The notes below the pieces were generated by a model. That model was not told the DNA's origin, made no database searches, and saw only the letters and a list, made by a program, of their open reading frames with translations. Positions 3,837-63,793 of a DNA stretch of 64,000 nt are shown piece by piece. Origin of the DNA: a virus; IMG/VR virus record IMGVR_UViG_3300008120_000012, positions 30,592-94,591 of that record; one strand, given 5' to 3'. Numbering within the stretch: position 1 is the first letter of the stretch; each line of letters starts with the position of its first letter. The position numbers and the translations under genes are program-made.

Positions 3837-3861
3837 TAAAATCACTTAGGAGGTGAAATAT

Positions 3862-4989
3862 ATGTCGGAACAGAACAACACAGAGATTGTAAAGAACTAT
3901 CCAGGTTCAACTTCACCAGCAGGTCAATTGAACTCTGAAGGATCATTCGCTTCAGGCGGAATCGGTTCAGTTACAACTCCAGCAGGCGGTATCCTTGGAA
4001 ACACACCAACAGCAAACATGGGTGTTACCACAGGACCAAACGCAGTAAACCCAACTGGTACACTAGGAGGTATCCTATTGCCAGAGCAGGCTCGTCGTTT
4101 CATTGACTACGTGTGGGATGCAACAGTTCTCGCCCAGGATGGTCGTAAGGTTACTATGAGAGCCAATACGATTGAACTTGAGAAGGTCAACGTTGGTGAG
4201 CGTGTTATTCGTGCAGCAGCGCAAGGTTCAAATAACTACACAAACGCTGGTGCTACATTCACTAAGGTAGAACTAACAACCAAGAAGATTCGTCTTGATT
4301 GGGAAGTATCTACTGAAGCACTTGAAGACAATATTGAAGGAGGTGCTCTAGAAGATCACATCGTACGCTTGATGACCAATGCATTTGCTAATGACATTGA
4401 AGATCTAGCGATTAACGGTGATGGTACAACTGGAGATTTCCTTTCAATTATGAATGGTTTCGTAAACCGTGTAAAGACTGCTGGTTCAGGAGCACACGAG
4501 TCAATCGTGACTGTTACAAGCAACCAGTGGACAACTGATGTAATGCAGAACATTATCTTGGCAATGCCACGTAAGTATCGTGCACTTAAGAGCAATCTTA
4601 AGTTCTATGCAGGTACTGACGCATTCCAGGGAATTATCAAGCATAACGGTACACTTGCTGATGCAGTAGCAGAAGCATTTGCTTATCGTCCATCAGGCAC
4701 ACCAGCAAACCGTCAAGCATATCTTGATGGTTCAGGACAAACTTTCGGTGGAGCACGTACAACACGTGTTCTCGGAATTGATGTTCAGGAAGTTCCTTAC
4801 TATCCTGCAGGCTATGTAGATCTTACATTCCCTCAGAACCGTGTATGGGGTTTCCAGCGTGACATCACTGTAAACCGTGAGTACAAGCCAAAGAAGGACA
4901 CAATTGAATACACAGTATTCGTCCGATTCGGCGTACAATGGGAAGAACTTGATGCAGTTGCTTACGCAGATGCAGCAGCAGAATCCTAA
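3862..4989 (+). CDS. major capsid protein (HK97 fold)
   Basis: GGILLPEQARRFI, EVSTEALEDNIEG, DLAINGDG motifs; AGGAGGTG RBS before ATG 3862. Confidence 0.93.
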   Translation: MSEQNNTEIVKNYPGSTSPAGQLNSEGSFASGGIGSVTTPAGGILGNTPTANMGVTTGPNAVNPTGTLGGILLPEQARRFIDYVWDATVLAQDGRKVTMRANTIELEKVNVGERVIRAAAQGSNNYTNAGATFTKVELTTKKIRLDWEVSTEALEDNIEGGALEDHIVRLMTNAFANDIEDLAINGDGTTGDFLSIMNGFVNRVKTAGSGAHESIVTVTSNQWTTDVMQNIILAMPRKYRALKSNLKFYAGTDAFQGIIKHNGTLADAVAEAFAYRPSGTPANRQAYLDGSGQTFGGARTTRVLGIDVQEVPYYPAGYVDLTFPQNRVWGFQRDITVNREYKPKKDTIEYTVFVRFGVQWEELDAVAYADAAAES

Positions 4990-37837: not shown

Positions 37838-39614
37838 TTTTTTAGAAGCACTTAAAGATAATCATTTTGAAGAAAATCCAGTAGATGTAAAAACATTTGT
37901 TGAATCTCCAGATTATTTAGGACAGCCACCACTTTCAGATATTCAATATGATGTTGTTGAGGCCATGAGCCAAATTTATCGTAAAGAAGATTTACAACAT
38001 TTATTAGGAACAGAAGAGGGGGCAAGGCACTATGCAAAATATACAAAAAACGAAATCATTCTTCAATTGGGTAAGGGTAGTGGTAAAGACTTTGTTTCTA
38101 CTGTGGCTTGTGCTTACGTTGTTTATAAGTTACTATGTCTTAAAGACCCTGCCAGATATTTCGGAAAGCCAAGTGGAGATGCAATAGATATTATTAACGT
38201 TGCTATTAACGCTGAGCAGGCTAAGAATGTTTTCTTTAAAGGTTTTAAAACAAAGATTGAGAAGTCTCCATGGTTTGCTGGAAAGTATGATCCGAAAGTA
38301 AACTCTATTGGTTTTAATAAATCTATTACAGTTTATTCAGGACACTCTGAGCGTGAATCTCATGAGGGTCTTAACTTGTTTATGGCTGTGCTTGATGAAA
38401 TCTCTGGTTTTGCTACAGAAGTAGGAACAGGAAATGATCAGGGTAAGACTGCTGACAATATATATAAAGCATTTCGTGGTACTGTAGATTCTCGTTTCCC
38501 AGATCTTGGCAAGGTAGTTCTTCTCTCATTCCCTCGTTATAATGGCGACTTTATTTCAAAGCGGTATGAAGAAGTAATTATGGAAAAAGATGTAGTAGAA
38601 CGTAGACATAAGTTTATTATTAATGAAGAGTTGCCAGAAGGTCCAGACAATGAGTTTGAGATTACGTGGGAAGAAGATCATATAAAGTCATACAAATATC
38701 CAAGGATGTTTGCATTAAAAAGACCTACATGGGAAGTTAATCCTACTCGTAAGATTGATGATTTTAAGATTGCATTTTTAACAGATCCAGGAGATGCAAT
38801 GATGCGTTTTCTTTGTACACCAACATATTCTTCAGATGCATTCTTTAAACAACGTGAAAAATTAGAAAAGTGTATGACATTAAGAAATCCAATTGACTCT
38901 ACAAAAAGGCTAGATGCATTTGCCCCTGATCCAGAAAAAATTTATTTTGTACATGCAGATCTTGCACAAAGACATGACAAGTGTGCAGTTGCAATAGCAC
39001 ATGTTGAAAAATGGGTTAATGTTCAAATTGTTAAGGACTATCAGCAAGTAGCCCCTATCGTTGTAGTAGATGCAGTAGCATGGTGGGAGCCAAAGATAGA
39101 AGGTCCAGTAGATCTGTCAGATGTAAAAAACTGGATAATTAATCTACGTAGACTTGGGTTTAATCTTGGTATGGTTACCTTTGACCGTTGGCAGTCATTT
39201 GATATTCAGCAAGAGTTAAAAACGGTAGGAATTAAAACAGATACCGTTTCTGTTGCAAAAAAACATTATGAAGACCTTGCTATGCTTGTATACGAAGAAA
39301 GAGTTGCTATGCCTAGCATCCCATTATTACTAGAAGAAATGTCAGAGTTAAAAATAACAGACAACGGAAAGCGGGTTGACCACCCACGTAAAAAATCTAA
39401 AGACTTGGCAGATGCTGTTTGTGGAGCGGTATTTGGAGCAATAAGCCATACCCCTAAAGACAATATGACAGAGGTAGATGTCCATACATGGTCATCTCCA
39501 AGAAAAAATACAGAAATCTTTGTTGACAGCAAAGGTGACAATGTGATAGAATATAACCGTAAAGAAATGCCTGATGATATCAAGTCATATCTTGACAGGC
39601 TCAATTTACTATAG
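37818..39614 (+). CDS. terL: terminase large subunit
   Basis: GKGSGKD Walker A, VLDEISGF Walker B, HADLA, DRWQS, DHP...SKDLADA nuclease motifs. Confidence 0.93.
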   Translation: MSTMFNDFLEALKDNHFEENPVDVKTFVESPDYLGQPPLSDIQYDVVEAMSQIYRKEDLQHLLGTEEGARHYAKYTKNEIILQLGKGSGKDFVSTVACAYVVYKLLCLKDPARYFGKPSGDAIDIINVAINAEQAKNVFFKGFKTKIEKSPWFAGKYDPKVNSIGFNKSITVYSGHSERESHEGLNLFMAVLDEISGFATEVGTGNDQGKTADNIYKAFRGTVDSRFPDLGKVVLLSFPRYNGDFISKRYEEVIMEKDVVERRHKFIINEELPEGPDNEFEITWEEDHIKSYKYPRMFALKRPTWEVNPTRKIDDFKIAFLTDPGDAMMRFLCTPTYSSDAFFKQREKLEKCMTLRNPIDSTKRLDAFAPDPEKIYFVHADLAQRHDKCAVAIAHVEKWVNVQIVKDYQQVAPIVVVDAVAWWEPKIEGPVDLSDVKNWIINLRRLGFNLGMVTFDRWQSFDIQQELKTVGIKTDTVSVAKKHYEDLAMLVYEERVAMPSIPLLLEEMSELKITDNGKRVDHPRKKSKDLADAVCGAVFGAISHTPKDNMTEVDVHTWSSPRKNTEIFVDSKGDNVIEYNRKEMPDDIKSYLDRLNLL

Positions 39615-51037: not shown

Positions 51038-51454
51038 ATGTTAAATTATATAGCGGTCCTCTTGACATTGGTGAACGTTGTTGCTATACTTTATAGATGG
51101 CGAAACAAAAAAGTTTTGCTTAAGAGATATGTTTATAGGCAAACAACTCTTCATCAGATAGCCAAATTGGTTATACCAACTAATGAAGAATTGCTTCTTA
51201 AAAAACCTACTCAATATAAAAAACATATTACAGATAAAACTGTAAGGGTTATACAAACACCTGATAGAAAAGCCTATTGGGTAAAAGATAACAAGTTTTA
51301 TTGCGCTGATGTGTTAGATGGTGAGTTTAATCCTGATCTTGGAAAAGAGATTAAGACTGATTCGTTATCAAAAAAGGAAATGAATAAATTATTATTCATA
51401 TTGGACAGTTTGAACAAAGGAAAAGAAGATGATAGTAGGAGTTCAGGGAACTAA
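51038..51454 (+). CDS. membrane-anchored hypothetical protein
   Basis: N-terminal TM helix. Confidence 0.55.
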   Translation: MLNYIAVLLTLVNVVAILYRWRNKKVLLKRYVYRQTTLHQIAKLVIPTNEELLLKKPTQYKKHITDKTVRVIQTPDRKAYWVKDNKFYCADVLDGEFNPDLGKEIKTDSLSKKEMNKLLFILDSLNKGKEDDSRSSGN

Positions 51455-52002: not shown

Positions 52003-52287
52003 ATGAAGCAACATCTATGGAAAGATAATGCTTCGTGTTTAGGTCTTGACACAAACTTATTTTTTGATAAATATGAAGAGAACGAATCATTAAGATCTGG
52101 CGTAGACAATATATGTCTTAATTGTCCAGTATTAAAAACATGTTTTGCCGTTGGTATATCTGGCAAAGAATGGGGAGTTTGGGGCGGAATTTATTTAGAA
52201 GGTGGAAAAATTTCTAAAGAATTTAACAGTCACAAAAATAAACAACAATGGGGTAAAGTTTGGATATCCCTAACAACGGAGGTGTAA
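52003..52287 (+). CDS. whiB: WhiB-family transcription factor
   Basis: C-x22-CxxC-x5-C pattern and GVWGG. Confidence 0.92.
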   Translation: MKQHLWKDNASCLGLDTNLFFDKYEENESLRSGVDNICLNCPVLKTCFAVGISGKEWGVWGGIYLEGGKISKEFNSHKNKQQWGKVWISLTTEV

Positions 52288-61613: not shown

Positions 61614-61859
61614 CTATAGTTCTTCTATGTTTTCATCAAATTCTTCTGCAAAAGAATTTATTTCATAAAAAGTTCCCCATTTTTGATAAATGGGATATGT
61701 AACCTTATAGATATATGAATACACTTTATACTTTAATCCAAAATTATTATCCTCATCCAGCATAGCAATTTTCCAAATCGCTGTTCCATTGATTTCACCA
61801 ACAAAATTGGCAAACCAGCGCAAAGGTGGTTTTGAATTGTGTATAACAGTTGTCTTCAT
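61614..61859 (-). CDS. hypothetical protein
   Basis: 81-aa ORF with TTGACA upstream. Confidence 0.55.
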   Translation of the reverse strand: MKTTVIHNSKPPLRWFANFVGEINGTAIWKIAMLDEDNNFGLKYKVYSYIYKVTYPIYQKWGTFYEINSFAEEFDENIEEL

Positions 61860-61890
61860 GATTCTATTATTCCATAAAAGTTTTCATATG

Positions 61891-61986
61891 TCAAGACTTA
61901 GGAACGAGTCTTTCCCAACCGCATCTTTGGCAGTAGTATAAAATCTTATCTCCCATGTCTAATTCTTGATATCTGTGTAGGTGCAT
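61891..61986 (-). CDS. micro Zn-binding protein (31 aa)
   Basis: MHLHRY...YCQRCG; TATAAT a few nt upstream. Confidence 0.4.
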   Translation of the reverse strand: MHLHRYQELDMGDKILYYCQRCGWERLVPKS

Positions 61987-61996
61987 TTTAATATTA

Positions 61997-62080
61997 TAAC
62001 AGAAAGGGGGCTGCTAGTTGTAATCAGAAAGGGAATTTTACTAGCAGCCCCTCTGCTCCACAGAAAGGGAAAGGAGCAGT
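61997..62080 (-). ncRNA. candidate twin-hairpin sRNA with UUCCCUUUCUG loops
   Basis: Two adjacent stem-loops carrying the same 11-nt loop motif, directly behind a consensus promoter. Confidence 0.65.
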
Positions 62081-62086
62081 ACTATA

Positions 62087-62115
62087 AGTATAGCAAGGGT
62101 AGATCGTGATGTCAA
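62087..62115 (-). promoter_or_regulatory. consensus promoter of the sRNA
   Basis: TTGACA-17-TATACT with TGC extension. Confidence 0.75.
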
Positions 62116-62116
62116 A

Positions 62117-63073
62117 TTAGGGGTTAAGGTCGTCTTTTATTAGATCAAAAAATTTTTCAGCAATATGTATTTGAGAGTGACTTCCAAAGTGTTGATTATC
62201 TGCTGCTATATTATAAGTTTTATTGTCTTTTTGTTGCAAATTTTGATGACATGAAAAATTTACAATTTTATTTTTTTTGGATATTTTTGAATATATATTT
62301 GCTTCATCTAAATCATTAATATAGTACCTAAAATAGGTAGGGTCTGACATAGATTTTATTTTATTAAAAAATGCTGTAGAAAGGGTGCTCCATGTTCCCC
62401 AATATAGTTTAATTCCACTTACAAAACAATATTGTTCTAATAAATGTATTTGTTGTATTGTATAAAAATGAACAAATTCAATAGGCAAAACATCACTAAC
62501 ACTGTGGGGCAATTTAGAATATTGTGGCTGCCAACTTTCTGAATCATTACTTATAAAATTTGCATAGCAGATGTCTGTTAGAAATGGTTTTACTTCTTTG
62601 TTTGTGTAACAATAAAAATCGCTGTATGGTATGCCAAGATCTTCAAATCTTCCTGGAATAAGTGGTAAATAAACTCTATTTATATCTGGCCAAAGACATA
62701 AAATAATCTCTGGATTGCCAAACTTTCTTATGTAAGCAAAAATTCTATAAATTAACCCTATTATAGACCCCCCATTTACACTTAAATTTGCACATTCTTT
62801 ATTAGACCATTTTTTTATATAATTAGGCCAAATATATTTTTCTTCTAATCCTTGCCCAAATGTCATTGAACAACCCACCATAAGTATATCTGCTAGTTTT
62901 GTAAAATCATCATCTCTATATCCATAATTATTTATTCTTCCTTTATCTATTGTTATTGTCTCAGGATCATATTGGTTTAACTTTATGTTGTCAGATAGTC
63001 TTAAGTTATTTAAAAAAATTTTTTTTAAACTATCATCGGTCCAGGTTTGTTTTTTACCCATAAAATAATTCAT
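62117..63073 (-). CDS. SGNH/GDSL-like hydrolase (paralog of 45165..46109)
   Basis: NNYGYR, VGCSMTFG, NLSVNG, DNQH. Confidence 0.65.
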   Translation of the reverse strand: MNYFMGKKQTWTDDSLKKIFLNNLRLSDNIKLNQYDPETITIDKGRINNYGYRDDDFTKLADILMVGCSMTFGQGLEEKYIWPNYIKKWSNKECANLSVNGGSIIGLIYRIFAYIRKFGNPEIILCLWPDINRVYLPLIPGRFEDLGIPYSDFYCYTNKEVKPFLTDICYANFISNDSESWQPQYSKLPHSVSDVLPIEFVHFYTIQQIHLLEQYCFVSGIKLYWGTWSTLSTAFFNKIKSMSDPTYFRYYINDLDEANIYSKISKKNKIVNFSCHQNLQQKDNKTYNIAADNQHFGSHSQIHIAEKFFDLIKDDLNP

Positions 63074-63667: not shown

Positions 63668-63793
63668 TCACCCCATAAATCTAAAACTAAAATGTTTTGG
63701 GCATACGTTAATTATCTGACCTGTATCTTTCTCAGGCTGCGTATATTCTGCCTTGCTGCTGCAGTAGTAACATAACTCTTTTGTGGCTATCAT
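63668..63793 (-). CDS. micro Zn-finger protein (41 aa)
   Basis: CYYC...VCPKH. Confidence 0.45.
   Translation of the reverse strand: MIATKELCYYCSSKAEYTQPEKDTGQIINVCPKHFSFRFMG

Follow-up and report, generated by a model that had tools for sequence, protein, structure and literature searches.

Bacteria are known to make small RNAs with repeated anti-Shine-Dalgarno loops, and single antisense RNAs have been described from a few temperate phages. The alpha-r14/cuckoo RNAs (NfeR1, CcsR1-4) are predicted or have been shown to pair with the ribosome sites of many mRNAs (PMC10746234, PMC4615179), and the 77-nt c4 RNA of phages P1 and P7 uses its loops to pair around a ribosome-binding site of the phage's own mRNA, blocking translation (PMC12197685). 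Cluster K mycobacteriophages carry start-associated sequences (SAS), a conserved 13-nt tag that precedes the start codons of some of their non-structural genes by 3-7 nt; these tags partly match the 16S tail and are nearly absent from host genomes, with the question of whether they are read by an RNA or a protein having been left open (PMC3203893). In phage T4, the endoribonuclease RegB, which cuts GGAG, and the repressor RegA both recognise ribosome sites on early mRNAs of T4 itself and end their translation (PMC3014915).

Here we analyse a minus-strand locus in a 64-kb window, by which we mean the whole stretch of 64,000 nt examined, corresponding to the final 64 kb of a linear 94.6-kb IMG/VR record (88% complete, 35% G+C). 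A sequence-only reading of this window had proposed a small RNA with Shine-Dalgarno-facing loops, related in layout to 6C RNA and silencing host mRNAs. The first part of that proposal holds, with the element found to be stand-alone and non-coding, to have its own promoter and a terminator-like end, and to present CU-rich loops facing ribosome-binding sequences; the interpretation attached to it, host silencing and kinship with 6C RNA, is unsupported. Judged from its sequence and that of its relatives, the element is a real, conserved, non-coding small RNA gene with a predicted transcript.

Genomic setting of the locus

Lake metagenomes of at least 14 studies contain DNA of the record, and blastn against cultured phages returned zero matches. 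The portal protein is nearest to Streptomyces phage portals (44-46% identity), and a related portal is encoded on at least 598 IMG/VR contigs. A WhiB-like gene lies at 52018-52191 on the plus strand (44 bits, above the Pfam cut-off); as WhiB is a marker of actinophages (PMC10202952), this gene and the Streptomyces-phage-like portal together point to an actinobacterial host. A leaderless design, consisting of a (TGn-)TATAAT-like -10 followed by exactly 6 nt and ATG, is observed at starts 48438, 49968, 60439, 61203, 61859, and 61986, the last two being those of the genes that directly follow the RNA, with a promoter and start of the leaderless type also present at 51062-51090. Other genes use the ribosome sites AGGAGG, AAGGAG, or GAGGTG, and the gene starts thus bear out the earlier description of the phage's translation signals. 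Leaderless mRNAs are common in actinobacteria.

Upstream, the RNA gene is bordered by a 318-aa gene (62117-63073, minus strand) with no Pfam or PHROG family; it is inserted here as compared with kin phages and, together with two small ORFs, gives this phage an extra 1.5 kb upstream of the RNA. The 318-aa protein has an identical copy on a 98.7-kb contig and other relatives at 47% identity, and no comparable intergenic region was found beside its relatives at 27-39% identity on viral and metagenome contigs. A 41-aa Cys-rich ORF further upstream (63668-63793, minus strand) matches the ORF directly upstream of the L201 RNA (37% identity, E 3e-8), a homology indicating that the locus is collinear with its kin. 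Additionally, the 81-, 83-, 94-, and 147-aa early genes recur downstream of the RNA in relatives. Among relatives of an oxygenase fragment at the contig end, the RNA was present in none of four loci.

Immediately behind the RNA lies a second promoter, TGtTATAAT (62001-61993, minus strand), followed by 6 nt and an ATG at 61986-61984. The TG in the tail of the RNA (62001-62000) doubles as the extended -10 TG of this promoter, with TATAAT itself at 61998-61993. The leaderless 31-aa ORF that follows (MHLHRYQ...CQRCGWER..., 61891-61986, minus strand) is Cys-rich, belongs to no toxin family, and provides a syntenic marker of the locus, sharing 61% identity with the ORF that follows the L187 RNA (E 1e-16) and having counterparts in L149, L162, L160, L145, and L227. 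The same leaderless promoter-ORF layout stands right behind the RNA in nine relatives. Since a leaderless gene must start from its own promoter, the RNA and the 31-aa ORF are taken to be separate transcription units. A plus-strand ORF of 42 aa (61981-62109) lies antisense to the RNA, opposite in orientation to all neighbours.

Promoter and predicted structure of the RNA

The promoter, twin hairpins, loop motif, and third tail copy of the motif are present on the minus strand exactly where the first description had placed them. The promoter comprises a -35 TTGACA (62115-62110), a 17-nt spacer with TGc at its end (62109-62093), and a -10 TATACT (62092-62087), and begins 2 nt past the stop codon (62119-62117) of the 318-aa gene. 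It scores 11/12 with a TG-extended -10, ranks among the three best of the last 5 kb, and is one of 5 sites in the window matching TTGACA-N16-18-TATAMT exactly, against 0.22 expected. The predicted start, A62080 (minus strand), lies 7 nt past the -10 and one base ahead of the first hairpin; it is placed there because the "-10, 6 nt, ATG" spacing of the leaderless genes of the phage was applied.

From sequence and folding, hairpin P1 (62079-62053, minus strand) has a 7-bp stem, CUGCUCC/GGAGCAG, formed by the arms CTGCTCC (62079-62073) and GGAGCAG (62059-62053), and closes a 13-nt loop (62072-62060; DNA TTTCCCTTTCTGT, RNA UUUCCCUUUCUGU) whose complement is ACAGAAAGGGAAA. A single unpaired A (62052) separates P1 from hairpin P2 (62051-62007), in which a G+C-rich stem of 12 bp, with its 5' arm at 62051-62040 (DNA GGGGCTGCTAGT, RNA GGGGCUGCUAGU) and its 3' arm at 62018-62007 (DNA ACTAGCAGCCCC, RNA ACUAGCAGCCCC), encloses a 21-nt loop (62039-62019; RNA AAAAUUCCCUUUCUGAUUACA). 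The 3' tail follows at 62006-61998 (DNA CTTTCTGTT, also written CUUUCUGUU). The P1 and P2 loops alike contain UUCCCUUUCUG, and the last Cs of the P2 stem together with the tail make up a third copy, CCCUUUCUG, at 62008-62000. P2 and the U-rich tail likely form a terminator, with the tail as the termination zone, giving a predicted minus-strand RNA of ~80-86 nt with its 5' end near 62080 and its 3' end near 61998.

Folding of the hairpins gives an MFE of -35.3 kcal/mol, compared with -19.3 +/- 2.95 for 200 shuffles (z = -5.4), none of which folded as well (0/200). Furthermore, the 3 copies of CCCTTTCTG in the 64-kb window are all at the RNA locus, with 0.44 expected and 3 reached in only 1 of 100 shuffles. 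Metagenome DNA contigs aligned to the locus show zero variants inside the hairpins. A partial fourth copy of the motif, CACCCTTTCTACAG, at 62378-62393 (minus strand) within the 318-aa coding sequence, is probably due to chance. The sole alignable metatranscriptome contig (lake run X20, depth 2, 159 nt) is a perfect match to 61751-61908 and does not reach the hairpins; it spans a promoter at 61894-61866, which would indicate read-through from upstream if the contig derives from RNA and not from carried-over DNA.

A family of twin-hairpin RNAs in related phages

The RNA family is absent from Rfam 15, which gave zero matches at gathering thresholds and, at E <= 10, only MicX, a match at chance level whose 17 bits fall far below the gathering score of 75. 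The criterion of the 6C RNA family is a run of at least six Cs in the loops; the loops of the phage RNA hold three Cs in a row, not six, and the 6C model (RF01066, Rfam 15) was unmatched at both its gathering threshold and E <= 10, contrary to the kinship first suggested. The Rfam models of the alpha-r14/cuckoo RNAs were likewise unmatched at E <= 10, and no sequence or Rfam similarity to c4 was found at the same cut-off.

Relatives were sought by scanning IMG/VR viral contigs for CCCTTTCTG-N10-40-CCCTTTCTG and filtering for flanking inverted repeats, which yielded at least 20 contigs with the same twin-hairpin layout. A scan of viral contigs for the exact twin 11-mer gave 3 matches, all of them coding repeats of unrelated viruses. 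Two forms of the element can be distinguished. Form A consists of a promoter, a variable 5' hairpin (P0), P1 and P2 of 7 bp each with loops CCCUUUCU, a CUCCUG linker, a further hairpin (P3), and a tail that often reads CCCUUUCUGU and runs into TATAAT-6 nt-ATG. Form B (L124, L201, L206, and L226) is without P3 and has a 12-bp P2, as in the window. The own sigma-70-type promoter and the 3' hairpin and tail abutting a leaderless -10 are traits of the family that are present in the window. The stems of the window RNA have no sequence in common with form A, while the loops are identical, with CCCUUUCU(G) invariant in both loops across the family, window included; conservation of the loop, on which the original proposal depended, is thereby confirmed. 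The tail CCCTTTCTGT or ACTTTCTGT is kept in most relatives, the third (tail) copy of the motif being the least conserved of the three, and the P1-P2 spacer is a single base in the window only, measuring 5-6 nt in relatives.

Selection on pairing is evident in the stems. Across 14 form-A members, 98.9% of cells are paired and double changes occur at 10/19 pairs, with none of 500 shuffles as good and only 42-51% (about 45%) paired when partners are slid. A model-guided alignment of the window, form B, and ten form-A members retains 97.7% pairing, with double changes at 12/19 pairs and again 0/500 shuffles as good, so that the covariation expected of a structured RNA is found with the window included. 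The covariance model R1, built from the 14 members, has a single match in the 64-kb window (61970-62078, minus strand; 17 bits, E 0.018) and aligns the window hairpins to P1 and P2 of the family. The weak score stems from the absence of P3 and the length of P2; form B scores 24.7 bits with the covariance model.

No reading frame across the loops is conserved among members, and the element is therefore non-coding. In the window both 11-mers do fall in one frame from 62080 (..PFPFC..KFPF*), but this frame has no start codon, and the loop frames of relatives vary (LPFWG, PSLSG, or mixed). An attenuator-like pairing of the P1 3' arm AGCAG with the P2 5' arm CUGCU, possible in the window, was rejected because relatives do not conserve it. 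Outside phages, the form-A twin motif was sought in 185,579 genomes of bacteria and archaea and gave 22 matches; each is either a direct repeat or coding sequence, and none fits the model. At exact-motif sensitivity, the family was thus not found in these prokaryotes. By this comparison the window RNA is a divergent, minimal member and the most reduced version seen, its P2 apparently doubling as the terminator, and as such it helps to tell which parts of the RNA are essential.

Several further features were observed in the kin. The P3 hairpin of form A, UCCUGAGCA[UGA..AAAC]UGCUCA, also stands alone in early-gene blocks of the kin with its loop and stem conserved (L199 11890-11980 and 13947-14026; L160 6487-6551 and 3658-3732; L234 2507-2573; L187 6253-6326; G007:39698-39777 and 38890-38914; G002:9235-9314 and 3848-3921), and these lone copies may serve as terminators or processing sites specific to the family; none is present in the 94.6-kb record of this phage. 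In many form-A members (L145, L142, L125, L216, and others), the P0 stem joins AGAAGG(G) to CCUUCU or CCUUUCU and so repeats, within the RNA, the duplex between tag and loop described below; it might hide one of the seeds or imitate a target. Additionally, L122 2180-2400 (G003, minus strand) holds iteron-like repeats (CCTGTGGATAA x4, ATCTGGCATAT x4, and TTAAGTAAAGGCTAA x2) in a non-coding stretch ahead of a leaderless early operon, without a twin-loop RNA there, and may be an origin or regulatory region.

Complementary ribosome-site tags in kin phages

In kin phages, the sequence (A)CAGAAAGGG(A)AA is found 3-9 nt before the ATG of real early ORFs, on the strand of the RNA and 2.3-12 kb upstream of it. 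This tag is the exact complement, over 9-13 nt, of the loop motif (UUU)CCCUUUCUG(U). Kin tags often read ACAGAAAGGGAAA, the perfect 13-nt complement of loop 1 of the window RNA, which has the longest loop-tag complementarity here (13 nt). Tags were counted as AGAAAGGG-N3-10-ATG over whole kin records, with the reversed pattern as control giving 0-1 per record. In G023 (95% complete), where the RNA is at 91.3 kb, all five of five tags lie upstream on the same strand at 96.8-103.1 kb, 5.5-11.8 kb from the RNA. The same placement, upstream of the RNA and on its strand, is seen for four of four tags in G029, for three in G027, and for two each in G025 and G028. In eight kin records that lack the RNA (548 kb, the complete G002 among them), 2 tags occur in all. 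The association between tag and RNA rests on few near-complete genomes, namely G002 without the RNA and G023 and G022 with it.

In three Actinomycetota that were sampled, the 16S gene ends in CACCTCCTTTCT, and the loop sequence resembles the actinobacterial 16S 3' tail (CCUCCUUUCU). The tag would accordingly be read as a ribosome site pairing with the terminal 7-8 nt of the 16S tail, and the loops complement the tag more closely than that tail does; as the 16S tail is related to loops and tags alike, part of the match between them could be indirect. In G007 (L116, G007:38934-39894), early genes carry the variant tags ACAGAAAAGGAA or ACAGAAATGGAAA before the ATG, and an RNA with loops matching these variants was not found in the 63-kb, 60%-complete record of that phage. 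The G007 sequence TTCC(T/A)TTTCTG was considered as an RNA and rejected, since on the opposite strand it reads as the variant tag ACAGAAAAGGAA preceding genes encoded there.

In the record of the phage studied here, no complement of at least 9 nt to the loops occurs except for the RNA's own antisense strand; the best other duplex (-18.6 kcal/mol) falls inside a gene, and none is outstanding. Homologs of the 19 tagged kin proteins are likewise lacking from the 94.6-kb record (0/19). The contig stops 1.9 kb upstream of the RNA, and the nearest kin tag is 2.3-3.5 kb upstream; this truncation offers an explanation of the absence, though not a proven one. The collinear G023, with its RNA at 91.3 kb compared with 92.6 kb here, runs 12 kb further, and it is this additional sequence that holds its tags. 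Most simply, a tagged block, with ACAGAAAGGG-type sites (cf. (A)CAGAAAGGGAAA), would be located in the missing 12% of the genome. A consensus TTGACA-17-TATAAT at the contig start (G000:33-62, minus strand, outside the window) fires off the contig, which fits minus-strand early genes in the missing genome part.

Proposed function and alternatives

On balance, we think that the element encodes a trans-acting RNA, similar to the 16S tail, which damps early translation by pairing with tagged ribosome sites on mRNAs of the phage itself. Host RNA polymerase would transcribe the RNA from the consensus, TG-extended promoter, and the transcript would end at the long P2 hairpin and U-rich tail, presenting the same motif of 9-13 nt in two loops and once more in the tail. 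The loops would then pair with tagged ribosome sites on early mRNAs of the phage, and with 9-13 perfect pairs, compared with about 7-8 for the 16S tail, they would out-compete the ribosome. Translation of the tagged early genes would thus be turned down, repression being the presumed direction of the effect, and leaderless and AGGAGG-type genes would be spared. The promoter of the RNA looks immediate and host-type, and the RNA may therefore be made together with its targets, not after them, which renders a simple temporal switch uncertain. More tentatively, since we hold it with somewhat less conviction than the pairing itself, freshwater actinophages may possess a private translation code, in which early-gene sites pair with the 16S 3' tail and a tail-imitating RNA competes for them.

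Pairing with host mRNAs, as originally proposed, would instead shut off host translation through GAAAGG-type Shine-Dalgarno sequences while the phage's mRNAs escape. The genes of this phage almost never use GAAAGG or AAAGGG, the loops could pair with 7 nt (AGAAAGG) of extended actinobacterial sites matching the 16S tail, and a strong promoter could yield a high copy number. The predicted enrichment of complementary host ribosome sites, however, is slight, with AGAAAGGG-N3-10-ATG found 597 times versus 437 for the reversed pattern in 81 Actinomycetota genomes (231 Mb), or 0.26 per 100 kb; this count includes the unpublished-flagged G032, G079, and G049, without which it is 578 versus 424. Each genome thus holds about 7 matches where about 5 are expected by chance, and the tag is several hundred times (roughly 300) denser in the early blocks of kin phages. 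Nor would phage mRNAs be spared, as the exact complement CAGAAAGGG tags the phage's own early genes in RNA-bearing kin, and the strict invariance of 9 nt across phages of different hosts better fits a co-inherited phage target. We regard host silencing as improbable. Equally doubtful is a protein decoy, in which the repeated, 16S-tail-like loops titrate away a factor, of host or phage origin, able to bind or cut such a sequence, for example an anti-Shine-Dalgarno-directed nuclease or a 16S 3'-end-binding protein, in the way that CsrB and RsmZ present GGA in their loops. The identical motif in two loops and tail, the resemblance of the loops to CCUCCUUUCU, and the CUCCUCC linker added in some relatives would all suit a decoy. 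Known binders of the 16S tail contact its CCUCC core, though, and the loops keep CCCUUUCUG in preference to that core; no protein linked to the locus is a candidate binder, and a decoy leaves the exact-complement ribosome-site tags of the same phages unexplained, making it a possible but less parsimonious account than pairing with phage tags.

The position of the hairpins, which begin 38 nt past the stop codon at 62117, invites a purely cis-acting explanation as a terminator of the 318-aa gene, a 5' leader, or a put-like antitermination signal for the early operon; the put RNA of HK022 also has two hairpins with single-base spacing behind an early promoter, and the metatranscriptome contig at 61751-61908 crosses a promoter, making some read-through possible. 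Such a role is less probable still, given that the promoter sits between the stop codon and the hairpins, that in relatives a long non-coding stretch and not a gene precedes the element, that the hairpin spacer of relatives is 5-6 nt, and that termination needs no invariant loop sequence. The next gene, furthermore, is leaderless with its own -10, and read-through would leave the 31-aa ORF unexpressed. The three direct copies of CCCTTTCTG lie within 70 bp, with the third falling within the promoter that follows (spacer and extended -10), and could in principle be DNA operators for a regulator of the two adjacent promoters. This we consider very improbable, with the compensatory changes in both stems showing selection on RNA pairing, and the motif always being in loops, its third copy the least conserved.

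If damping of the phage's own tagged genes is true, one 85-nt RNA would switch off or buffer a whole class of genes while leaving leaderless and AGGAGG-led genes untouched, and the long-unexplained start-associated tags of actinophages would gain a reader. If the pairing is real, it would amount to RNA-only timing or dosing of early genes in lytic infection, parallel to RegB/RegA of T4. To our knowledge, a conserved phage RNA mirroring a private tag on a whole early-gene class is undescribed in papers.

Comparison with known systems

As far as sequence and layout allow a verdict, the phage RNA is a member of none of the alpha-r14/cuckoo, c4, 6C, put, or ToxI-like groups. It is similar to 6C RNA (RF01066) in its two hairpins, pyrimidine-rich loops, and actinobacterial setting, but 6C loops have at least 6 Cs, whereas the loops of the phage-borne RNA have CCC within a U-rich motif. 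A put-type RNA as in HK022 is not supported by the layout, the single-base spacer occurring in the window only, compared with 5-6 nt in relatives, and the next gene being leaderless. A Type III antitoxin (ToxI-like), which would call for near-identical tandem repeat units ahead of a toxin gene, was rejected, with the P1 and P2 stems differing and varying independently and the downstream 31-aa ORF belonging to no toxin family.

Like the alpha-r14/cuckoo RNAs, the phage RNA repeats an identical CU-rich anti-Shine-Dalgarno motif in several hairpins whose stems diverge (PMC10746234). Their motif, however, is CCUCCUCCC, absent here, compared with CCCUUUCUG in the phage RNA, and they are chromosomal RNAs of Alphaproteobacteria with host targets, in contrast to an actinophage RNA facing a private tag on the kin's own genes. 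The predicted outcome, early-gene shut-off, resembles that of RegB/RegA in T4 (PMC3014915), which are proteins and not RNA, and are without homology to the element described here. The SAS of mycobacteriophages share with the kin phages an actinophage tag ahead of the start codon that is related to the 16S tail (PMC3203893); they differ in sequence (GGGATAGGAGCCC) and in that a complementary RNA is undescribed for them, while the tag described here is seen in relatives only. The closest phage precedent is c4, likewise a phage-encoded RNA whose loops face the phage's own ribosome sites (PMC12197685). In contrast to c4, which serves immunity through one operon (ant) of a temperate enterobacterial phage, the RNA described here faces a tag common to many early genes.
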